35,961 nucleotides of DNA from Candidatus Nomurabacteria bacterium RIFCSPLOWO2_01_FULL_33_17. GTDB lineage: Bacteria > Patescibacteriota > Minisyncoccia > Phycocordibacterales > UBA9973. The notes beneath the pieces were generated by a model that ran no database searches, was not told the DNA's origin, and saw only the letters and a program-made list of their open reading frames with translations. The stretch spans positions 1 through 35,961 of the forward strand of contig MFUO01000004.1 of assembly GCA_001786995.1 (NCBI GenBank). Direction: 5' to 3'. Shown piece after piece: positions 340-25,828 of this stretch; position 1 is the stretch's first letter, and every line of letters begins with the position of its first letter. A program made the translations under genes and the position numbers.

Positions 340-1812
340 TTATTCTTTCCTTAAAAACAACGGATGCTCGGGTTTTTTATTTTGTTTTATTAATTCTTGA
401 ATCTTTTGTGAAGTTTCAGGTAAAAATGATTTTAACATTTCTGAAATATTATATAATTCTAAAACCATTTCGGAAATTAATTCTTTGCCTTTTTGTTCAT
501 CTACTTTCACTACTTTGAATGGCTCCGACTCTTGGATTTTTTTATCTAAATCTTGAATTTTATCCCATATAAAATCCATAGCATGTTTAATTTCAAATTT
601 TCCCAAATAATCCGAAAGTTCTTGAGATATTAAATTTTCAGAAAGTTCTATATGATCATCTAGGTATTTTTCTGAAAGAGTGAGAATACGCGATGTTAAA
701 TTTCCTAGTCCATTTGCAAGTCCTGAATTATAGGCATCTTTAAATCTTTCAATTGTAAATGGTGAATCTTCAAAATTTGAAATTTCACGAAGTAAAAAAT
801 ATCGCAAAGCATCCGTATTGTAATCTTCCACGATAGTACGAGGATCAACTACATTACCAAGTGTTTTACTCATTTTTATCCCTGCATCACCTGTTATGAA
901 TCCATTTACTACTATTTGATATGAATTGGGCACACTGGCGGCCATTAACATGGCTTGCCACATTGCACCCTGAAAGCGTGTATTGTCTTTGCCACAATAC
1001 TGCGTTGGAGTGCCATTCACCCAGTATTTTTCAAATAAACCCAACCCCTCCTCAGTCCTCCCCTTATCAAGGGAGGAAGTAGAACCCCACCCCAGTGTAT
1101 TTATATAATTCGTCAATGCGTCAAACCATACGTACATGACTTGTGTATCATCACCCGGTACAGGTATACCCCATGGCATTTTTTCAACCTTGCGTGAAAT
1201 TGAAAAATCTTGCAAGCCACTTGAAACAAAGTTTTTAATTTCATTAAATCTAAAATCAGGAATTATAAAACTTGAGTTTTTTTCATAAAATTCTAAAAGT
1301 TTTTCACCAAATTCAGAATATTTAAAAAAATAATTTTCTTCTTCAATTTTTTGAAGCTCGACTCCAAGATGATCAGGGCAAAATCCGTCATCATTCAATT
1401 CACTGTCAGTTTTTTCTGATTCGCAACCAACACAATACTTTGCTTCATAATTTTTTTTATAAATATAACCATTATTATAAACTATTTTCCAAAATTCTTG
1501 TGCTCCCATTTCGTGTTTCTTGTCAGTTGTACGGATAAAATGTGCATCAGAACTTATTCCAAATATTTCAAGTTGTTTTTTAAATGTTTCAAAACCAGAA
1601 TCAACAAAATCTTGAACATTAAGACCTGCTTCCCGTGCTTTTTCATAAATTTTTATACCATGCTCATCAGTACCAGTATTAAAAAATACATCAAAACCAA
1701 TTGATTTTTTATATCGTGCTATTGTATCAGCTCGAATAAATTCTAAAGCATGCCCCATATGTAATGGAGCGTTAACATAAGGTAGTGTCGTTGTAATATA
1801 AAAAGGCTTCAT
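340..1812 (-). CDS. metG: methionine--tRNA ligase (short form, no C-terminal tRNA-binding domain)
   Basis: 490-aa ORF with class I HIGH-type motif (PLHMGHALE), KMSKT motif, a Cys knuckle (CVGCESE...CPDH) and the conserved WFDALTNY segment. Confidence 0.95.
   Translation of the reverse strand: MKPFYITTTLPYVNAPLHMGHALEFIRADTIARYKKSIGFDVFFNTGTDEHGIKIYEKAREAGLNVQDFVDSGFETFKKQLEIFGISSDAHFIRTTDKKHEMGAQEFWKIVYNNGYIYKKNYEAKYCVGCESEKTDSELNDDGFCPDHLGVELQKIEEENYFFKYSEFGEKLLEFYEKNSSFIIPDFRFNEIKNFVSSGLQDFSISRKVEKMPWGIPVPGDDTQVMYVWFDALTNYINTLGWGSTSSLDKGRTEEGLGLFEKYWVNGTPTQYCGKDNTRFQGAMWQAMLMAASVPNSYQIVVNGFITGDAGIKMSKTLGNVVDPRTIVEDYNTDALRYFLLREISNFEDSPFTIERFKDAYNSGLANGLGNLTSRILTLSEKYLDDHIELSENLISQELSDYLGKFEIKHAMDFIWDKIQDLDKKIQESEPFKVVKVDEQKGKELISEMVLELYNISEMLKSFLPETSQKIQELIKQNKKPEHPLFLRKE
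1041..1093. repeat. GC-rich hairpin repeat embedded in frame in metG
   Basis: ccaacccctcctcagtcctccccttatcaagggaggaagtagaaccccaccc is about 60% GC, with stem tcctccc/gggagga at 1056-1077. It encodes GWGSTSSLDKGRTEEGLG. Confidence 0.75.
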
Positions 1813-4453: not shown

Positions 4454-5020
4454 TTAAAAAAATTTTAAAATTTCTGATAATTCTTTTACACTATCATCTT
4501 CAGTAAAATGACCTTTATTTTTTAAAATTGTAACTTTAGCATTTAATTTTTCTTCAAAAATTTTCTTATTTTCTTCTACATAACCAAAAGGTTCATTACT
4601 CGATAGTAGAACTTGAATCTTAGGACAAATATTTTTGACACGATCAAAATTAATTGGGGTCTCTAACCATGGACGTGCAATATTTATTATCTCCTCACCT
4701 TCCTCTGCTAATCCATCTAATTTCAACCAACCAGCAACAAACACAATTTTATTAATTTTTGTATTTTCAGATAGTGTCATTAAATATCGCATAATTGTCT
4801 GAGACCCAATACTGTGCCCAATTAAACAAATATCATCATCCGGTGTTCCAATAATTTCACTCAATTTTGAAACCCATTTATTAATATCTGGTTTATCGGT
4901 TTCGGGCATAATTGGTATAAAAACTTGATAGCCCTTAATTTGTAGCTCATTTAAAACCCACTGATACCAATCACTATTAGGTGTCCCACCCCAACGATGG
5001 ATTATAAAAATTCTTTTCAT
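4454..5020 (-). CDS. YdeN/RBBP9-type alpha/beta serine hydrolase
   Basis: 188-aa ORF with IIHRWGG start, nucleophile elbow GHSIG, and C-terminal GHF. These are typical of the Ser_hydrolase (YdeN) family. Confidence 0.75.
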   Translation of the reverse strand: MKRIFIIHRWGGTPNSDWYQWVLNELQIKGYQVFIPIMPETDKPDINKWVSKLSEIIGTPDDDICLIGHSIGSQTIMRYLMTLSENTKINKIVFVAGWLKLDGLAEEGEEIINIARPWLETPINFDRVKNICPKIQVLLSSNEPFGYVEENKKIFEEKLNAKVTILKNKGHFTEDDSVKELSEILKFF

Positions 5021-5111: not shown

Positions 5112-5594
5112 TTATATTTTAATTTTAACGGCACTAAAAATTTTTATATTCTTTTTAATACCAAGTAGCTCTAAATGATTTTTAAAATTGTCAGTCAATT
5201 TACCTTTTCCAAACCAAACGCTTTGTTGAATCATTATAAAACCCCATAACTTTAATTGTTTGCGTAACCAGTCACGAATCTTTCTTTTTTCTTCTGGAAT
5301 ATCAAACATAACCATAACACCATCTGTATTTTCTTCTTTTTTAAAATACGTTGAAGTACTCTTAGCATTTATATATTTCTTATGATCAAGAACAATATCA
5401 TCTTTGATTAATTTAATAAAACCTTGTTTTTTTAACCTATACAAACTTTGAGAAAATGCTTGTTTTTTTTGTTTATCTCTTCCTTCAACAAGATTTCGGA
5501 GTATTTTTGTTTGTAAAGACTTTGATTTACATGACAAAAGATGACTTATTATTAACTCAGTAAAAGTTGCTCTTTCCCAATATGGTTGTTTCAT
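5112..5594 (-). CDS. winged-helix plus Cas2-fold (PaaX-like) putative transcriptional regulator
   Basis: The C-terminal VMFDIPEEKRKIRDWLRKQLKLWGFIMIQQSVWFG matches the Cas2-like ferredoxin module of PaaX-type regulators. The N-terminal half looks like a wHTH. I prefer the ATG at 5594 (MKQPYWE...) over the track's GTG at 5618, which lies inside the upstream palindrome. Confidence 0.6.
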   Translation of the reverse strand: MKQPYWERATFTELIISHLLSCKSKSLQTKILRNLVEGRDKQKKQAFSQSLYRLKKQGFIKLIKDDIVLDHKKYINAKSTSTYFKKEENTDGVMVMFDIPEEKRKIRDWLRKQLKLWGFIMIQQSVWFGKGKLTDNFKNHLELLGIKKNIKIFSAVKIKI

Positions 5595-5603
5595 TTTTCT
5601 ATT

Positions 5604-5637
5604 ATAACTATTTATCACGGTCGTGACAAATAGTTAT
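5604..5637. promoter_or_regulatory. 34-bp near-perfect palindrome ataactatttatcacg-gt-cgtgacaaatagttat (candidate operator)
   Basis: Read directly from the sequence. It sits in the divergent region between the regulator (start 5594) and the GT2 gene (start 5676). It has the same length and architecture as 5062-5095. Confidence 0.6.
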
Positions 5638-8054: not shown

Positions 8055-9944
8055 TTATTGTATAACAATTCCATCTTTTGATGTACCGTTAGAAATTTCA
8101 GTTGTTATATTGGGATGAATAGCTGTAACTTCTTTATTAGAAAATAAATCAGTTCCATTAAATCGAATTCTTTGTAAGATTTCTGGTGATAGACCAAGTT
8201 GAGAAAGTGATGGAGAAAAAGATAATTGAATTGCTGCAGACCGTGGTGCATTTGTGTTACCAGCACCAGATTCAATATTTCCTAAATTCCATATTATTTC
8301 ACGAGTATCTGGATTATATGTTACTTTTTCACCAGCAGTAACTTTACCAACCCATTTAACATAAAAAGGAATTTTTGAAACAAGTTTACCACCTGTTATA
8401 TCATTATGAGTATTCTTTAAAGAAAATGTAATTTGATATATAGTTTCTTTTTCAACAGTTAATGGAATCATCCCCGAAGCATAAATATTTAAGACACTAA
8501 TGGTTGGTTCTGTTGCAACACGTACTGTAGCAGTTTCAATATTTTGAAGATTTTGTACTATACCACTACCGTCATCTTTTATACCACTAAATGACAACGA
8601 TAAATTAACCAATGGATCTTTAACAACAACAGGACCATCCGTACTTTTAGCTAATGCACGAAATGTAAAATTAAGAATACCATCGGTACCTGGTGGGATT
8701 ATATTTAGTGATTCTTTTGTATTTTTATCCCAAAACATTTCATTTTTTGCAGAATCATAAAATCCTTCTACAGGAATAATTGATAATTCATCGAGTGCTG
8801 ATCCACTAATATTTAAATGAAAAACTGGATTAATAATAGGTACAGATCCACGATTACGATATACTATTTCACCTTGAATATTAGTATTTGGATTAACAGC
8901 AATTGTTTTACCTTTTTCTGTACCCAAAAGAATATAAACATCGAGAATTGGGCGAGTTAGTGATATAACATGTGTTCTTGATACATAACTTGTTTTTATA
9001 TTAGTTCCACTAGAATCAAGTGGAACACCTGCAAAAAAACGAAAAGACCTTTCATCCCCTTCTTGTGAACTAAATCTTCCAGTAATAATTATATCTTCAT
9101 AATCACCTTCATTTTGTGTATTGATAATCCAAGTCCCTACACTAAAACTTGGTTGTTTAGAGAGTGATTCAACAGTAAAATCTCGTGGAAAAACAATTGA
9201 TATAAGAGACCCTATTGGTAAAGATTTAGTATTTTGACTAATACGCAAACGAAGAGTATAAAGTTGACCTGGTGAAATTTCATTAGGAGCATCAACATCT
9301 AAAATTATTGGTGAACTTGATATACTTAGAGCTGATTCTGCAATTTTAGTATATGTTAATGTTGAATCTGGAAGACTATATTCAAGAGTTGCTTTTATAT
9401 TTTTTGTACTACCCTTTTCACCATACAAAACAACTGTAATACTTTTATTAATTTTTTCTCCTGGAGCAATATCAGGTAAATCTAACCGAACAAATTCAAA
9501 ATCTTCACGAAGTAATTCTTCGCTACCCCTGGGGTATTGTATTTCCATGTGAACATTTTTAAGAGCAGTATTATTACGATTTACAATTTGGATAGATAAA
9601 GGTAATGATTCTCCACCTTTTGAAAAAGGAGCAGTTACAATTTCTATATCAATATGTTTTGATATAAAATCTTCTCTTGATTCAGAAAAAAATAAACGAT
9701 AACCTGCATATAAAAATGCTAATAACAACACAATAAGAGAAATCATAAAAAACTTTTTTGCAAAAGAAGATTTTCTAATAATATTCTCATTATTATCTAT
9801 ATTCTCTGGTATAAAAGGTGTTCTTAGCTTAAATGATGTACCTGTTAGTGGATGATGCTCTAATTTAGGTACACTGTGTGATGTACTATACAAATCATTT
9901 TCTTCTTGATTTATAAAATCATTTTTTTCTTCTTTAGGAATCAT
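8055..9944 (-). CDS. membrane-anchored protein with repeated beta-sandwich (CARDB/DUF11-like) ectodomain
   Basis: 629-aa ORF with a single TM helix (FFMISLIVLLLAFLYAGY) after a ~70-aa cytoplasmic tail, followed by a long beta-rich region. No catalytic motifs recognised. Confidence 0.65.
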   Translation of the reverse strand: MIPKEEKNDFINQEENDLYSTSHSVPKLEHHPLTGTSFKLRTPFIPENIDNNENIIRKSSFAKKFFMISLIVLLLAFLYAGYRLFFSESREDFISKHIDIEIVTAPFSKGGESLPLSIQIVNRNNTALKNVHMEIQYPRGSEELLREDFEFVRLDLPDIAPGEKINKSITVVLYGEKGSTKNIKATLEYSLPDSTLTYTKIAESALSISSSPIILDVDAPNEISPGQLYTLRLRISQNTKSLPIGSLISIVFPRDFTVESLSKQPSFSVGTWIINTQNEGDYEDIIITGRFSSQEGDERSFRFFAGVPLDSSGTNIKTSYVSRTHVISLTRPILDVYILLGTEKGKTIAVNPNTNIQGEIVYRNRGSVPIINPVFHLNISGSALDELSIIPVEGFYDSAKNEMFWDKNTKESLNIIPPGTDGILNFTFRALAKSTDGPVVVKDPLVNLSLSFSGIKDDGSGIVQNLQNIETATVRVATEPTISVLNIYASGMIPLTVEKETIYQITFSLKNTHNDITGGKLVSKIPFYVKWVGKVTAGEKVTYNPDTREIIWNLGNIESGAGNTNAPRSAAIQLSFSPSLSQLGLSPEILQRIRFNGTDLFSNKEVTAIHPNITTEISNGTSKDGIVIQ

Positions 9945-10579: not shown

Positions 10580-13500
10580 TTAATTTATATCTATATCAAA
10601 AATTAAATTATCTATCTTAAAGACAGACCCATTTATCTCCTCTCCCAATACCATCTCTTTTGCCGATACTTCACTAAGTAATGCTTGCTCCCAAAAATTT
10701 AGAAAATCTTTCCCTTTATCATTTGTTTTTATTTGAACTGTTATTTTATCATGGGCTTTTAATCCACGGGCTTTACGCATATCTTGGACAAATCTTACTA
10801 ATTCACGAAAATTACCTTCGCTTTTTAATTCTTCATTTATTTCTGTGTCAAAATCAACCTTGTCACCAATGACGACACTTTCTACATTTAATTCATCAGC
10901 GACGATCACAATATAATCCATAGATAAATTATCTGTTATAAAAAATGTTCGAAGTATTTGGCGAACAGGAATACCATATTTTTTTCGAAGAGAATGTCCA
11001 ACAGTGCAAATATCTTGAACTTTCTCCATTGTTTCTAAAATAAAATCAGATTCTGGTATACCAAAATAATCGGGCCAATTTACTAAATGCACGCTTATTG
11101 GGTCAGATTCTAATCTTAAATCTTGCCATAATTCTTCGGCAACAAATGGTGTAAATGGCGCCATGATTTTAGCTAAATTTTTTAAAACAAAATACAATGT
11201 ATTATGGGCATCCATATCACCCCCACGAATTCGCAAACGCGAACGACGAGTATACCATGTTGATAATTCATCTATAAAATTTCTAATTTCTCTTGTTGGT
11301 GGAAGTAATGAATAATTATCCAATGATAAAGTTGTATTTTTTATAAGATTCATTAATTTAATTAATATCCATTTATCCAATACATTATTGCTATTTGGTA
11401 TACTAAAAAGATTTTCTTTTGTTTTGTCACGATAAAGATCGTAGAAAGCATAAACATTACGAAGAAGATTAAAAACTTTTTTAATTACTTCATCTACTGT
11501 TTTTTCGTCAAAATTTTTAAAATCCCCTGGTTGGTTAATACTATACATCCAAAAACGCAATGCATCAGCTCCGAATCGGTTACACAAATCCCATGGATCA
11601 ACAGTATTACCACGAGATTTAGACATTTTTTGTCCATCTTTATCCATTACAAGCCCAAGACAAATTACATTTTTATATGCTGGCCCGCGCCCCATAAGAG
11701 CTGATACAGCATGTAAAGTATAAAACCAACCGCGAGTTTGGTCTATACCTTCACAAATATAATCAGCAGGAATTGATACTTGGTCTGTTTTAAAGGGATA
11801 ACCATCTTGGGCAAATGGCATACAACCAGAATCAAACCAACAATCCATGACTTCGGGAACTCTTTGTAATTTATTTCCATTTTTATCATAAACTGGATAA
11901 TCATCAATATATGGCCGGTGTAAATCAAGTTCATAATTTTCATTATGTGGCAATGGAACAAAATCTAATTCTTTCCATTCGGCGTTTTGTGAATAATGAA
12001 AATCTTCAATATTATTAGGAATTTCATTTTTACTCAATCCTAAAGAACCAATAACCATATTCAAAACTGGCCCACCATGGGAAAAAATTAAAATATTTTT
12101 GTTTTGATATTTTTCCTCAAAATCATAAAGCGCATTCATGACTCTATTTTTTACATCTTGATAATTTTCTCCATCTTTATTTTCTTTTATGTAGCGGTCT
12201 TTGTAATTTGAGAAAAGTCCCAAGAAATCACCAAGATCACGACCTTGGTAAATTTCCCCTGGATTCATTTCGCACAATCTTTCATCAAAAATAATCTCAT
12301 TTTTGTCATACCCAATTACATCCGCTACTATTTCAGCTGTCATTTTTGTTCTCAACAATGGCGAACAAATTATAAGATCTATATTTTTATCTTTCAAACC
12401 TTGCGCGGAATTTTGTACTTGATCTTTACCCTTTTCAGTTAACTTTACAATACTATTTGGTTTTGAATCCCAAACATTTTTTATATTATTTTCTGCTTCA
12501 CCATGACGCATTACAAAATATTTATTTCCAGATTTTTTTGTAGCGGCCTGCAAATCTTTATGATTCGTAAAAATATGTTTTTCTCCGTTTTGCCCTATCC
12601 AAACAGGTAATGGCGTACCCCAATATCTTTCGCGTGATATTGCCCAATCTTTTACTTCGCGTAGCCATTCACCAAATCGTCCATTTTGAATATGCTTGGG
12701 TTCCCAATTTATAAAATCATTATTCATGACCAAATCATCACGAAGCTCACTCATCCGGATGTACCATGAATCTCGAGTATAATAAATAAGTGGAGTTTGA
12801 CAGCGCCAACAATATGGATAACTATGTTCGTATTTTTCTTTTTTAAACAGTAGTCCACGATGGGCTAAATCTTTAATTATATCAATTGCGACTTGTTCAT
12901 CTTTTACAAATCTATTGCTCAATTCTAATTCATCAGAATTCATTTCGGAATTAAAAGTTCCATCTAATCCAACTAAATGATATTTTGGAAGACCAAGTTT
13001 TGTACCCAATTCAAAATCATCTTGTCCATACATAACTGCTGTATGCACTATCCCAGTCCCATCATTGGCATTTACGAAACCTGCTTCATAAACTTTGTAT
13101 GCTTTATCTAAATTTCCTGTCTGTCCGGTAGGTAGGTCTTTTTGCTCGTGAGATATTTGATTAACAAAAAATGGATACAGTGGTTCATAAGATAAACCAA
13201 TTAAATCTTTACCAATATATTCTTCAACTATTTCATACTCTCCATCAACTATACTTAACCTGTCTTTACCTAAGATCAAAAAATCTGCATCTTTTTTAAT
13301 TTTTACATACGACAAATCAACATTAACAGCCAATGCAACATTACCGGGTAATGTCCAAGGAGTAGTAGTCCAAGCTAGCAAATATGTATTTTCTTGTCCA
13401 AGAATTTTAAATTTTGCAGTAATAGATAAATCTTTTACATCTTTATAACCTTGCGCTAGTTCATGTGATGACAATGCTGTACCACACCTTGAGCACCACG

Positions 13501-14035
13501 GCACAATTCGATAGTCTTTATAAAGTAAATTTTTCTTATCAACTTCGGCTACGATATTCCAAAGTGATTCTATGTAATTTGATTCATAAGTAATATAAGG
13601 ATTATCTTGATCAATCCAATACCCAACTCTATCAGTAAATTTTTGCCATTCATCAATATAAGTCCAAACGCTTTTTTTACATTCATTATTAAAATTTCCT
13701 ATTCCATATTCTTCAATTTGTTTTTTGTTTACAAAACCAAGTTCTTTTTCAACTTGTAATTCAACTGGTAGTCCATGTGTGTCCCAGCCACCCTTGCGAC
13801 CTACATGGTACCCCTGCATTGTTTTATAACGAGGTATTGCATCTTTAAAAGCTCGAGCTTCTAGATGATGAATTCCAGGACGACCATTGGCAGTAGGTGG
13901 CCCATCATAAAAAACAAATTCACCATTTGGAGAATCTTTTTCCAAACTTTTTTCAAAGATTTTATTATCCTTCCAAAAAGACATGATTTCCAACTCATGC
14001 TCGTTTATTGATTTACTTATTTTCTCTTCTTTCAT
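10580..14035 (-). CDS. ileS: isoleucine--tRNA ligase (type 2) with an inserted histidine-phosphatase domain
   Basis: Has the editing-domain TTPWTLPGN, WAISRERYWGTPLPVW, EGIDQTRGWFY and KMSKSRGN. The true start is probably the ATG at 14035 (MKEEKISKS...). The track's extra 16 codons (MFCCMWTSFYLDNINY) lie on the T-box terminator. Confidence 0.95.
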   Translation of the reverse strand: MKEEKISKSINEHELEIMSFWKDNKIFEKSLEKDSPNGEFVFYDGPPTANGRPGIHHLEARAFKDAIPRYKTMQGYHVGRKGGWDTHGLPVELQVEKELGFVNKKQIEEYGIGNFNNECKKSVWTYIDEWQKFTDRVGYWIDQDNPYITYESNYIESLWNIVAEVDKKNLLYKDYRIVPWCSRCGTALSSHELAQGYKDVKDLSITAKFKILGQENTYLLAWTTTPWTLPGNVALAVNVDLSYVKIKKDADFLILGKDRLSIVDGEYEIVEEYIGKDLIGLSYEPLYPFFVNQISHEQKDLPTGQTGNLDKAYKVYEAGFVNANDGTGIVHTAVMYGQDDFELGTKLGLPKYHLVGLDGTFNSEMNSDELELSNRFVKDEQVAIDIIKDLAHRGLLFKKEKYEHSYPYCWRCQTPLIYYTRDSWYIRMSELRDDLVMNNDFINWEPKHIQNGRFGEWLREVKDWAISRERYWGTPLPVWIGQNGEKHIFTNHKDLQAATKKSGNKYFVMRHGEAENNIKNVWDSKPNSIVKLTEKGKDQVQNSAQGLKDKNIDLIICSPLLRTKMTAEIVADVIGYDKNEIIFDERLCEMNPGEIYQGRDLGDFLGLFSNYKDRYIKENKDGENYQDVKNRVMNALYDFEEKYQNKNILIFSHGGPVLNMVIGSLGLSKNEIPNNIEDFHYSQNAEWKELDFVPLPHNENYELDLHRPYIDDYPVYDKNGNKLQRVPEVMDCWFDSGCMPFAQDGYPFKTDQVSIPADYICEGIDQTRGWFYTLHAVSALMGRGPAYKNVICLGLVMDKDGQKMSKSRGNTVDPWDLCNRFGADALRFWMYSINQPGDFKNFDEKTVDEVIKKVFNLLRNVYAFYDLYRDKTKENLFSIPNSNNVLDKWILIKLMNLIKNTTLSLDNYSLLPPTREIRNFIDELSTWYTRRSRLRIRGGDMDAHNTLYFVLKNLAKIMAPFTPFVAEELWQDLRLESDPISVHLVNWPDYFGIPESDFILETMEKVQDICTVGHSLRKKYGIPVRQILRTFFITDNLSMDYIVIVADELNVESVVIGDKVDFDTEINEELKSEGNFRELVRFVQDMRKARGLKAHDKITVQIKTNDKGKDFLNFWEQALLSEVSAKEMVLGEEINGSVFKIDNLIFDIDIN
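11960..12523 (-). other. histidine phosphatase (PGAM-superfamily) domain embedded in ileS
   Basis: KYFVMRHGEAENN, ICSPLLRTKMTAEIV, ERLCEMNPGEIYG and ILIFSHGGPV are all present, in frame, between two conserved IleRS segments. Confidence 0.8.
13112..13138. repeat. 27-nt palindromic module in frame in ileS
   Basis: atttcctgtctgtccggtaggtaggtc differs from the tatD-like copy at two stem positions plus one flanking base. It encodes DLPTGQTGN. Confidence 0.7.
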
Positions 14036-14241
14036 ATAATTTATATTATCCAAATAAAAACTCGTCCACATACAACAAAACAAATTGTTATATAAGGACG
14101 AGTTTCACTCGTGGTACCACCTTAATTACTTCTCATTTACTGGATTCTAATCCCCTAAATTAGGGTTTCTTTCCAAAGCCTGCCTGCCTAAATTTTACAA
14201 ATTTTAGTAGGCTCCGGGGCGATACTCCCATCATTGCTTAT
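14036..14241 (-). promoter_or_regulatory. T-box leader (tRNA-sensing riboswitch) controlling ileS
   Basis: The minus-strand RNA contains AAUUAAGGUGGUACCACGAG (T-box core; + strand 14106-14125). A terminator follows: AAACUCGUCC...GGACGAGUUU plus UUUUAUUU (14053-14105). A GAUGGGAG K-turn-like start and a possible AUC specifier (+ strand 14221-14223) are also present. Confidence 0.8.
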
Positions 14242-25200: not shown

Positions 25201-25828
25201 TACCAGAATCATTTTTTGCGGCTAACCGTACATAATATTTTTTGTATTCTTTGAGGTTTTTTACTTCCTCTTGCATACTACTCATATTATAGTTTTTGCT
25301 TTGGGTTTCTGGTTGAATGATTTTCTTTGTTGCACTCCTGAAAGAATCAGGAGTAATATCGTACTCATACCAAGTCGTGGTGATAAGTCCGTTTGCAAAA
25401 AAGTATCCGTTCACCTGAAACTGATTTGTGTCATTTGTCCAAAGTCCCCATAAATCCACACTAGGAAGTCCAGTTGGTGGTGTGTATAGATAATAGACAC
25501 TACCATAGCTTACCCCATTTGAATTTTTTGCAACCACCATATATTCGTATGATGTTTGTTCGTTGAGGTTTGTAATTGTCTGGCTTATTGTGCCAGAATT
25601 ACTTTTTGTGTAACGTTGGCTTGTGTCAACTTTACTTGACCCACTTTGCCAGTAGATAAAGTAGGATTCACAGGCCGATCCATTTGGGTTTACATACCCA
25701 TTTAAGACTGCGGAATTTCCAAATACACGAGTTGCATCGTATGTATCGACATACGGTGCTTGTGCGTAAGATGTTAGGCTACAGCTAATAATAGCGAGCC
25801 ATGTCATAATCATTTTTTTTGTTTTCAT
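22244..25828 (-). CDS. large secreted protein: ~11 tandem Fn3-like modules plus T9SS (Por) C-terminal sorting domain
   Basis: 1194-aa ORF with signal peptide MKTKKMIMTWLAIISCSLTSYAQAP. It has about 11 modules of roughly 95-100 aa, each ending L.PNTTYYYR..A.N..G...G....F.T. The C-terminus KAYPNPFLEQLTVES...INLDHLPAGVYFIQIYKGSQFIGNQKIVKQ matches the T9SS type A sorting tail pattern. Confidence 0.85.
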   Translation of the reverse strand: MKTKKMIMTWLAIISCSLTSYAQAPYVDTYDATRVFGNSAVLNGYVNPNGSACESYFIYWQSGSSKVDTSQRYTKSNSGTISQTITNLNEQTSYEYMVVAKNSNGVSYGSVYYLYTPPTGLPSVDLWGLWTNDTNQFQVNGYFFANGLITTTWYEYDITPDSFRSATKKIIQPETQSKNYNMSSMQEEVKNLKEYKKYYVRLAAKNDSGTVYSSVGTIITQSGKPPVVITDSATNLSNSTAMLNCRFDGLANCAYSYYEYGQSPKSLNKSTYDSYFQSWNCQYGMFNYSKEIYGLSPNTTYYYRAVSESNRGKSYGEILSFKTEGSYAPEVLTLQASNISYTSADLWGYYNSNGAESTEISFQHGTSIYLGLETSPVSYQKGTDTVKVSIKDIESGAKHYYRLKAKTKFGISYGSLVEFTTDFNFPPTTNTDSAIASSTTQINVFAKFDANRTDTKTWFEYDTLVNKYSMSTSKSSQGKSAGNISETLSGLLPNHTYFIRSGAENVFGIVYGKTIAVTTLNNQQPLVVTDSIDAISSTYAILAGFVDGKKSDTKFVFEWGTSSQTLTNQTPEIKTGKGSSYQLVPIYGLDQYTTYYYRIKATNEWGVTKGQVYKFRTLPNKEAVVKILKIDSITPNSAKITVVIDGRGTISDFALNYGNDLNLREQTDFFTAKKVLDTLTVLLSGLNPDSRYYLAPISRNSFGEIQGNVKELTTLNNKPPTIKLETVCATATTIVFDGYYNSNKTKTNVWVVCKDKNGFTIKTTILDDKIDSGPFSILANDLDANTWYYYQAYAQNSFGIVMTTTDSVLTLGNQKPIVKTLTPIVHDTYAILFAEVDGQGTNTNIEFVYGTDPSELYKITGKFNSGSYKKTVQGIMYGLKPNTTYFFYVSAENTWGIEKSEIMSFRTLDFTPQKEKVFLKILSIEVTADIHYAVLKASISSKDELASYWTTYGDGQKSSVEMFYDSGIRIVTIVLTNLWANSTQSCLFYLQNVNGKDSMLVEFKTKNNQTPNVKTLKITQVDDSTLLFEGKYNANGSAPIRYYFEYSTDLSFSKRSPIYFSKNDSDVVYSMVSCNYGETYYTRLVCENEIGITQGNILSLKTKEKDVTGINDVSINPDQVAIKAYPNPFLEQLTVESKEGDLVVFINIQGVVVHKTLIQNDVEQINLDHLPAGVYFIQIYKGSQFIGNQKIVKQ

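Follow-up and report, generated by a model that had tools for sequence, protein, structure and literature searches.

A histidine-phosphatase domain nested in a type-2 isoleucyl-tRNA synthetase, and its recurrent association with IleRS and ValRS in Patescibacteria

The window analysed here, a stretch of 35,961 nt, carries on its minus strand a single open reading frame (ORF; 10580..14083 in the ORF listing of the window) that runs uninterrupted through a large insert and encodes a type-2 isoleucyl-tRNA synthetase (IleRS, gene ileS) with class-I motifs, a CP1 editing domain and a type-2 C-terminal domain. An earlier note on this DNA had described the gene as an IleRS with a complete histidine phosphatase inserted into its catalytic body, and the continuous reading frame that it reported has been confirmed. 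Residues of the synthetase are counted from the ATG at 14035, whose Met is the alignment start for the closest homologues and for the IleRS2 sequences of the PDB. The features of the gene are given below in the order of the protein; the residue counts refer to a set of 120 close homologues with 55-68% overall identity.

10580..14035, minus strand: ileS, type-2 isoleucyl-tRNA synthetase with nested phosphatase, 1151 aa (ORF; TIGR00392; 8c8w)
12578..14035, minus strand: IleRS aa 1-486, with the first half of the Rossmann fold, the CP1 editing domain and the connective peptides that precede the insertion point (aligns to 8c8w 1-464)
13865..13876, minus strand: GIHH, aa 54-57, the class-I HIGH motif in its GXHH form (counterpart of 'pgvhh' in 8c8w)
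about 12587-12598 and 11879-11887, minus strand: former hairpin cysteine positions, aa 480-483 and 717-719 (homologue alignment)
11948..12577, minus strand: inserted segment, aa 487-696, with short structured linker, phosphatase domain and return linker (gap in the alignment with the Priestia megaterium enzyme PmIleRS2)
11966..12517, minus strand: His_Phos_1 (PF00300) domain, aa 507-690 (Pfam; Foldseek)
12500..12508, minus strand: RHG motif with R510, H511 (predicted phospho-accepting nucleophile) and G512 (R and H in 120/120)
12350..12352, minus strand: R562 of SPLLRT, second phosphate-pocket arginine (120/120)
12269..12271, minus strand: E589 (RLCE), predicted general acid (E in 109/120, D in 11/120)
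12077..12079, minus strand: H653 (SHGG), second catalytic histidine (120/120)
10583..11947, minus strand: IleRS aa 697-1151, with the second half of the Rossmann fold, KMSKS, the anticodon-binding domain and the type-2 C-terminal domain (aligns to 8c8w 480-849 and beyond)
11615..11629, minus strand: KMSKS motif, aa 803-807 (invariant in the homologue alignment)
10580-10582, minus strand: ileS stop codon (ORF)

The synthetase scores 827.9 bits with the ileS equivalog model TIGR00392, above the equivalog cutoff of 621.4, and its best match in the PDB has been the PmIleRS2 entry 8c8w (E 8.6e-230), with the IleRS1 1ffy at 1.1e-89. Foldseek also favours the type-2 enzyme, the full-length AlphaFold model (predicted local distance difference test, pLDDT, 89.4; predicted TM-score, pTM, 0.81) superposing on IleRS2 structures, and Pfam matches to Anticodon_1 and DUF5915 lie in the C-terminal part (aa 697-1151). 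Enzyme type, domain order and C-terminal organisation are those of PmIleRS2 (8c8u/8c8w; PMC10485003). The host enzyme has kept its own signature motifs: TTTPWT (aa 223-228) of the editing domain does not vary in the homologue alignment, nor do H331 and D340, and in Paceibacteria-type homologues G54, I55 and H56 of the GIHH motif are conserved to at least 90%, with H57 invariant. This GIHH corresponds to the GVHH of 8c8w, an entry described as a mupirocin hyper-resistant HIGH-motif mutant, and Brkic et al. (2023; PMC10485003) connect the GXHH variant with a hyper-resistance of IleRS2 to mupirocin. Therefore, IleRS of the window type may be intrinsically resistant to mupirocin. The scores with the mupirocin-resistance IleRS models MupA (746.6) and MupB (735.4) lie below their cutoff of 1900, and no second ileS has been found within the 36-kb window. 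A 100% identical protein has been recorded as a hypothetical protein of a Candidatus Nomurabacteria metagenome-assembled genome (MAG) that belongs to the Patescibacteria, or candidate phyla radiation (CPR); the identical IleRS is present on two contigs.

The limits of the insert have been set by alignment with type-2 IleRS, a step that the earlier note had proposed: residue 486 of the query pairs with residue 464 of 8c8w and residue 697 with residue 480, so that about 210 residues, some 195-210 of them extra, stand in place of about 15. The conserved IleRS motifs on either side, which the note had found unusually far apart, are indeed separated by 224 residues here and by about 24 in IleRS2. 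The catalytic HUP core of PmIleRS2 comprises residues 40-168 and 513-632 (PMC10485003), and these limits place the insertion point outside the core, in the connective-peptide region and just ahead of where the core resumes with its second half. By alignment, the point is the Zn-hairpin loop of this region, a loop of about 15 residues in PmIleRS2 that is taken up in the window IleRS by the 210-residue phosphatase module; the insertion thus lies inside the IleRS as had been claimed, but not within the Rossmann core. Four cysteines (C..C and CxC) bracket the insert in a Zn-hairpin-like manner in 70/120 relatives, and in the subclade of the window all four have been replaced (I/N and D/N). The linkers are short and conserved (KTKKSGN-x-YF, with KKSGN strongly kept among fused forms) and have been modelled with confidence in the full-length model, at a pLDDT of about 90 for the linkers themselves and above 90 across most of aa 487-696. 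Accordingly, the domain is predicted to form a docked lobe, not a floppy appendage.

By profile, catalytic residues and fold, the insert is a branch-1 histidine phosphatase of the PGAM-like family PF00300. The earlier note had placed the phosphatase at 11960-12523 (aa 505-692), and the profile search has returned aa 507-690 with an E-value of 1.1e-28 and 100.7 bits (gathering score 21.7), covering profile positions 2-179 of 194 and flanked by two tRNA-synt_1 stretches. The motifs that the note quoted lie at the residues it gave, namely WAISRERYWGTPLPVW (aa 464-479), YFVMRHGEAENN (aa 506-517), ILIFSHGGPV (aa 648-657), DLHRPYIDD (aa 704-712) and VMDCWFDSG (aa 729-737), and ICSPLLRTKMTAEIV is present with SPLLRTKMTA at aa 558-567; its third phosphatase motif is present as well, although a Q had been dropped from it and the true reading is ERLCEMNPGEIYQG. 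Modelled alone with AF2, the insert folds confidently (pLDDT 95.8, pTM 0.91), and Foldseek superposes this model on PspA 4ij5, PhoE 1h2e and 1fzt with TM 0.72-0.75. The best structural matches have been small-molecule phosphatases of about 200 aa (PspA, PhoE, riboflavin-pathway HFP, GpgP and CobC; TM 0.70-0.75); mutases have matched less well, and phosphoprotein phosphatases (SixA, Sts-1, PGAM5) are absent from the top 50 Foldseek matches.

Curated models have not assigned the insert to any known enzyme. Its best NCBIfam match is the archaeal dPGM model, at 80.3 against a cutoff of 225, and a dPGM identity has been rejected with this score and those of pgm_1 (26.4 vs 81.7) and GpmB (60.7 vs 261). 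Mutase-type enzymes carry the motifs ERHYG and HGNSLR; the insert shows RLCEMNPG and SHGGPV and has no C-terminal tail, since the chain returns into IleRS. Identities as SixA (46 vs 74.5), CobC (74.2 vs 162.9) or PspA (59.6 vs 350) have likewise been discarded. As no curated NCBIfam cutoff is reached, the substrate is not readable from homology. With PspA 4ij5, PhoE/YhfR 1h2e, CobC 6nru/6e4b and GpgP Rv2419c the insert has in common the fold, a size of about 190-210 aa and the RHG...R...E...H set, with sequence E-values down to 3e-10 at only 20-25% identity; unlike them, it is nested in, or operon-coupled to, a synthetase. PADLOC anti-phage profiles have given no match for the insert, its free-standing homologue or the whole protein.

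R510, H511, T533, G536, S558, R562 and H653 are invariant in the 120 homologues, and G512, N517, E623 and R631 have been kept in at least 98% of them. The catalytic set is also retained in 231 further, more distant copies of every context (free, fused, in ValRS or with TsaC), R562 in particular in 159/159 fused and 59/59 free copies. The domain as a whole diverges rapidly, with a mean column entropy of 1.88 compared with 0.7-0.9 for the IleRS core. Active-site residues that stay fixed while the remaining domain drifts fast indicate selection focused on the active site. To judge from this pattern of conservation, a complete PGAM-type active site is under purifying selection and the domain is apparently catalytically active, which agrees with the claim that it is complete and not decayed. 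Insert and host gene also agree in composition, as had been noted (GC 0.305 vs 0.328, GC at third codon positions 0.21 vs 0.20, codon-frequency r = 0.89).

The architecture, which had been taken as unusual, has turned out to be widespread. PF00300 is present in 120/120 of the best homologues (NCBI, JGI, ENA and Logan assemblies), and the insert alone, searched against 1.84 billion cluster representatives, has given 800 matches at E <= 1e-10; among the best 150 of these, roughly 100 are IleRS, whole or in fragments, that carry the domain at the window's site. Free-standing relatives of about 190-196 aa (MKLNNKYFLLRHG...) have the identical catalytic set. Loci of 80 GTDB species have been classified with local hidden Markov models; the names in their records include Staskawicz-, Jorgensen-, Niyogi-, Taylor-, Lloyd-, Wolfe-, Nomura-, Kaiser-, Zambryski- and Campbellbacteria and Paceibacter (names as in the records, where many 'uncultured Ca. 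Saccharibacteria' labels look generic). The phosphatase is fused at the window's site in 63/80 loci and the gene is fragmented in 1/80, while in 16/80 a separate phosphatase gene lies on the same strand directly 5' of an insert-less IleRS of 930-1009 aa, a split context also seen in three further locus look-ups. From the phosphatase stop to the ileS ATG the distance is -11 to +14 bp in 16/18 evaluable loci, most often 1 bp, and no free-standing phosphatase away from ileS has been found in the 16 split species. In a rough, unbootstrapped neighbour-joining tree of IleRS cores the split and fused forms are interspersed, which suggests more than one fusion or fission event. The block ArgRS-(phosphatase)-IleRS-RecO-orf629-ProRS is syntenic, with ArgRS upstream in 16/16 split loci. 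Phosphatase-bearing IleRS is the rule among bacteria of the Paceibacteria type, and it is also common in those of the Gracilibacteria and Peregrinibacteria types.

Several single loci deserve mention. The IleRS-phosphatase gene of Campbellbacteria RB_MAG_00022 (L085 4573-8070) is broken into at least 8 short ORFs; it could be a pseudogene, a badly assembled stretch or a gene read with an alternative genetic code. A YbaK-type tRNA_edit gene (L093 9109-9585) follows an insert-less ileS after 1 bp, and at another locus (L090) an RpiB gene (4483-5004) overlaps the start of an insert-less ileS, directly after which lies a Ser_hydrolase-like gene.

In Gracilibacteria-, Peregrinibacteria- and Peribacteria-type IleRS the phosphatase also occupies two further loops, into which it has moved independently. 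Besides site A, the insertion site of the window, these are site B, the YPF...PAD loop (about aa 746-755 in window numbering), and site C, just before the anticodon-binding domain (about aa 872-883). Among 120 IleRS proteins listed, the sites are occupied as follows.

Site C only: 45
Site A only: 40
Sites B and C: 11
Site B only: 5
Sites A and C: 3
Sites A, B and C: 2
Sites A and B: 1
No site occupied: 13

The catalytic set is intact in essentially each copy, with up to three intact copies per IleRS, and Gracilibacteria-type copies keep it at all three sites; the B and C architecture of one cluster (P0170) has been recovered on six independent contigs of up to 1.06 Mb. Beyond IleRS, a domain of the phosphatase clade lies in one ValRS (P0234) and four copies lie in another (P0124), and a 1337-aa ValRS carries the phosphatase in a genome whose IleRS is without insert. 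The coordinates of the catalytic-domain phosphatase in ValRS, with the IleRS of the same genome lacking an insert, are:

L091 12319-13204
L092 9725-10610

The domain is native to the gene, and as an operon partner or a nested domain it shows a recurrent and preferential association with IleRS and with ValRS, the closest paralogue of IleRS. The same phosphatase clade is fused to the t6A enzyme TsaC/YrdC in four clusters. Patescibacterial TsaC/YrdC proteins (P0276-P0392) are themselves a fusion hub, mostly with an MGMT DNA-binding domain, and their other partners are TruB, 2H cyclic phosphodiesterase, MPG glycosylase, NUDIX, GNAT and His_Phos_1.

His_Phos_1 is the commonest passenger of IleRS, in about 107/120 proteins compared with 5-16/120 for any other domain. 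A GNAT co-passenger occurs in 16/120 and corresponds to NF040702, and P-loop kinase-like domains (AAA_18, AAA_33 or Zeta_toxin) are found in 5/120 (P0205, P0455, P0470, P0475, P0476), where the kinase domain shares the IleRS polypeptide with the phosphatase; that of P0205 has given weak, generic matches to APS kinase, shikimate kinase and Pnkp1. DUF559 endonuclease-like domains are likewise present in 5/120, and further passengers are Ser_hydrolase, an IS200-type Y1 transposase domain and a MafB19-type deaminase. The in-frame DUF559/REase-like, Y1 transposase and deaminase passengers have been seen in P0406, P0419, P0420, P0469, P0470, P0476 and P0446, so that in-frame domains, selfish-looking ones included, seem to enter the IleRS of CPR bacteria especially often. 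At site B, one IleRS (P0444) holds a Ser_hydrolase (PF06821) with 26% identity to the product of window gene 4454-5020, and another (P0454) holds a HAD-family phosphatase and no His_Phos_1, an apparent non-homologous substitute which suggests that phosphatase activity itself has been selected. The architectures of P0205, P0454, P0444 and P0476 each come from single clusters. An 'AlkB-like' fusion (P0245) has been set aside as a single case with an oxygenase match below the gathering score.

Precedents exist for parts of this arrangement. The NCBI model NF040702, 'ileS_w_GNAT', is a curated precedent for a catalytic passenger in a bacterial IleRS, and Gracilibacteria- and Peregrinibacteria-type proteins combine GNAT and His_Phos_1 in one IleRS; the window protein has no GNAT domain and reaches 298 bits with this model, far from its cutoff of 1999. 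The CP1 editing domain is the closest functional analogy, as it is likewise hydrolytic, is nested in the connective-peptide region of the Rossmann fold and acts on a ligand held by the synthetase. However, its fold is unrelated, it hydrolyses the ester of aminoacyl-tRNA where the phosphatase module would hydrolyse a phosphomonoester, and it is universal in IleRS, ValRS and LeuRS, whereas the searches made here have found the phosphatase module only in CPR-type MAG and metagenome sequences. A PGAM-type phosphatase joined to a nucleic-acid enzyme is known from the bifunctional RNase H/acid phosphatase (NF005567, Rv2228c type), which the insert matches at E 1e-20 with a score below the cutoff (74 vs 326). 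End healing of the T4 Pnkp type combines a kinase with a phosphatase, and some IleRS relatives hold a P-loop kinase and the phosphatase in one polypeptide; the Pnkp phosphatases, however, belong to other folds (HAD or metallophosphoesterase) than the insert.

Based on these observations, we consider that the insert has somewhat better than an even chance of being an active accessory phosphatase dedicated to class-Ia synthetases and functionally coupled to them. On this reading, the phosphatase of sister Paceibacteria comes from a separate, translationally coupled gene directly upstream of an insert-less ileS, and in the fused form of the window it sits in the Zn-hairpin loop, where the short structured linkers are predicted to dock it as a discrete lobe. 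By analogy with the family, R510, R562, H653 and N517 would hold the phosphate, H511 would attack to give a phospho-histidine intermediate, and E589 would protonate the leaving group before water frees the phosphate. Fusion or operon coupling would provide a 1:1 stoichiometry and proximity to the ligands of IleRS, so that the phosphatase may act on something bound or produced by the synthetase. More tentatively, this substrate could be a nucleotide-type phosphomonoester, either a 2'/3'-phosphorylated tRNA acceptor end that needs healing before charging or an AMP-like mononucleotide product. Hints in this direction, none of them decisive, are the P-loop kinase inserted together with the phosphatase, the 2H cyclic phosphodiesterases fused to sister TsaC proteins, the YbaK-type trans-editing gene behind one insert-less ileS, the tRNA-themed neighbourhood of the TsaC fusion, and the likeness to CobC, an enzyme whose substrate is a nucleotide-like 5'-phosphate. 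Of the roles floated in the earlier note, an action on Ap4A is improbable, since Ap4A is a diester. It is thus conceivable, with a comparable reserve, that CPR bacteria have added a step to tRNA charging in which a dedicated PGAM-type phosphatase, operon-coupled or nested and accompanied in relatives by kinase, GNAT and esterase modules, acts on IleRS/ValRS ligands, healing 2'/3'-phosphorylated tRNA ends or clearing a nucleotide or antimetabolite at the active site.

A number of points weigh against a dedicated, coupled phosphatase. As the whole block is syntenic, adjacency to ileS alone is weak evidence of coupling. The unrelated passengers of IleRS (DUF559, the IS200-type Y1 transposase, the deaminase) and the many unrelated fusions of TsaC are consistent with permissive loops and not with a function, the closest structures are all small-molecule metabolic phosphatases, and we know of no RNA-end phosphatase in the PGAM family. 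The isoelectric point of the domain is not consistently basic (5.3 for the domain of the window, with medians of 7.2-7.8) and, ranging from acidic to basic, is uninformative as a nucleic-acid-binding signature. Nor, finally, does this reading account for an association with IleRS and ValRS and not with all synthetases.

Several of these points also feed the strongest alternative, possible but less probable than the coupled reading, namely that the domain is a housekeeping phosphatase with an ordinary small-molecule task (phospho-amino-acid, sugar-phosphate or PGM-like) unrelated to aminoacylation, a neighbour of ileS that local rearrangements have moved into permissive loops of large, essential and constitutively expressed genes and that streamlined CPR genomes have kept for its own activity. 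With the entire neighbourhood syntenic, the adjacency would be unremarkable; IleRS loops do take up unrelated, selfish-looking domains, TsaC is a comparable fusion hub, and one genome has the domain in ValRS and not in IleRS, as though its location were flexible. The metabolic character of the nearest structures (PspA, PhoE, GpgP, CobC, riboflavin-pathway HFP) and the archaeal dPGM model as the top NCBIfam match would also fit. Yet a single family dominates (about 107/120; 120/120) over passengers that are otherwise sporadic. It recurs in three loops of IleRS and in the sister enzyme ValRS, and the 2-4 intact copies in one protein would be odd for a simple housekeeping enzyme; in 16 species no free-standing copy has been found away from ileS. 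A HAD phosphatase has taken its place in the IleRS loop at site B, and no equivalog cutoff has been reached for any known metabolic function.

Protection of the target site is an unlikely explanation, in which the phosphatase and the GNAT, kinase and serine-hydrolase passengers would inactivate phosphorylated antimetabolites or aminoacyl-adenylate-like inhibitors directed at IleRS or ValRS, or strip an inhibitory phosphate from the synthetase, for instance a Hip-kinase-type phosphoserine in KMSKS. The set of acetyltransferase, kinase, esterase and phosphatase does resemble the classic small-molecule-modifying resistance enzymes, the GXHH motif is consistent with past inhibitor pressure, and in class-I synthetases the KMSKS-type serine is a target of the kinases HipA and HipT. 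However, we know of no phosphorylated IleRS inhibitor, PADLOC has returned no match, no kinase toxin has been seen in the neighbourhoods examined, and none of the 50 best structural matches is a phosphoprotein phosphatase of the family, with the SixA model below its cutoff. Still less credible, in our view highly improbable, is a catalytically silent module, its fold retained for a structural, tRNA-binding or phosphate-sensing task: inserted domains often make the RNA contacts of class-I synthetases and the KKSGN linker motif is strongly conserved among fused forms, but the full catalytic set, nucleophile and general acid included, has stayed invariant over very deep divergence while the remainder drifts, and the free-standing form has the same set. 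An artefact, finally, be it a chimera of the assembly, a pseudogene with a frameshift or a mobile insertion of the intein kind, has been considered since the sequence comes from a MAG, and is effectively refuted. The ORF is uninterrupted, the identical protein lies on two contigs and the composition is native; the recurrence of the join in hundreds of independent assemblies effectively excludes a misassembly, and an intein or other self-splicing or homing insertion has been rejected, as Pfam shows only His_Phos_1 in aa 487-696, with no Hint or endonuclease domain.

The gene lies among housekeeping genes of the window (Tmk, dUTPase, RecO, ProRS-like, MetRS, L11, NusG, EF-G, S7 and S12). Other features of the window are the following.

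340-1812, minus strand: MetRS of only 490 aa, with catalytic core and anticodon domain and no C-terminal appended domain
4454-5020, minus strand: gene for a free-standing Ser_hydrolase (PF06821), part of the syntenic block that lies downstream of ileS
5112-5618, minus strand: 168-aa ORF with a PaaX-middle/Cas2-like domain
8055-9944, minus strand: orf629, 629 aa, between RecO and the ProRS-like gene, no Pfam match
22244-25828, minus strand: 1194-aa predicted surface protein with Fn3, purple-acid-phosphatase N-domain repeats and Por_Secre_tail (E 1e-9)

MetRS, the ProRS-like gene and IleRS place three synthetase genes within 14 kb. A syntenic ORF of 558-610 aa occupies the position of orf629 in most related loci, and orf629 lies downstream in 50/79. 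The Cas2-like ORF has neither a CRISPR array nor cas genes visible with it in the window. Por_Secre_tail is a C-terminal sorting domain of the type IX secretion system, unexpected for a CPR genome. No tRNA gene has been detected in the 36-kb window, nor any Rfam family at gathering threshold, and the cumulative GC skew falls steadily over 1-35961, consistent with genes that lie mostly on the minus strand.

Regarding novelty, the window protein is an ordinary member of a large family that automatic annotation has seen and for which no describing paper has been found, and the family is a variant on the theme of a synthetase with an accessory domain. The novelty suggested in the earlier note thus stands only in part. 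Precomputed Pfam annotation already detects the domain, one JGI product name reads 'isoleucyl-tRNA synthetase/phosphohistidine phosphatase SixA/...GNAT', and the curated NCBI model covers the GNAT-bearing form only; on the other hand, a full-text literature search has turned up no paper on a phosphatase-bearing synthetase or on the IleRS architecture of CPR bacteria.

Aminoacyl-tRNA synthetases are among the best-studied enzymes, and the CP1 editing domain is the usual nested hydrolytic module of class Ia; in much of the Patescibacteria, IleRS is linked to a further hydrolase that is not related to CP1 and has an intact active site. Its occurrence as an operon partner, in three IleRS loops and in ValRS, together with the HAD substitute, argues that a phosphorylated molecule matters for the charging of tRNA(Ile) and tRNA(Val). 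Identifying that molecule would give translation biology a new reaction in a major, mostly uncultured bacterial group, and would explain more than 100 clusters at 50% identity that now bear no label but 'class I tRNA ligase family protein'. Where the metabolism of CPR bacteria is reconstructed from domains, one may meanwhile miscount the inserts as 'phosphoglycerate mutase family' enzymes. Should the healing of tRNA ends prove true, the domain would be, to our knowledge, the first histidine-phosphatase enzyme of RNA-end repair, and if the accessory step is real, class-Ia synthetases would appear as multi-enzyme quality-control platforms.

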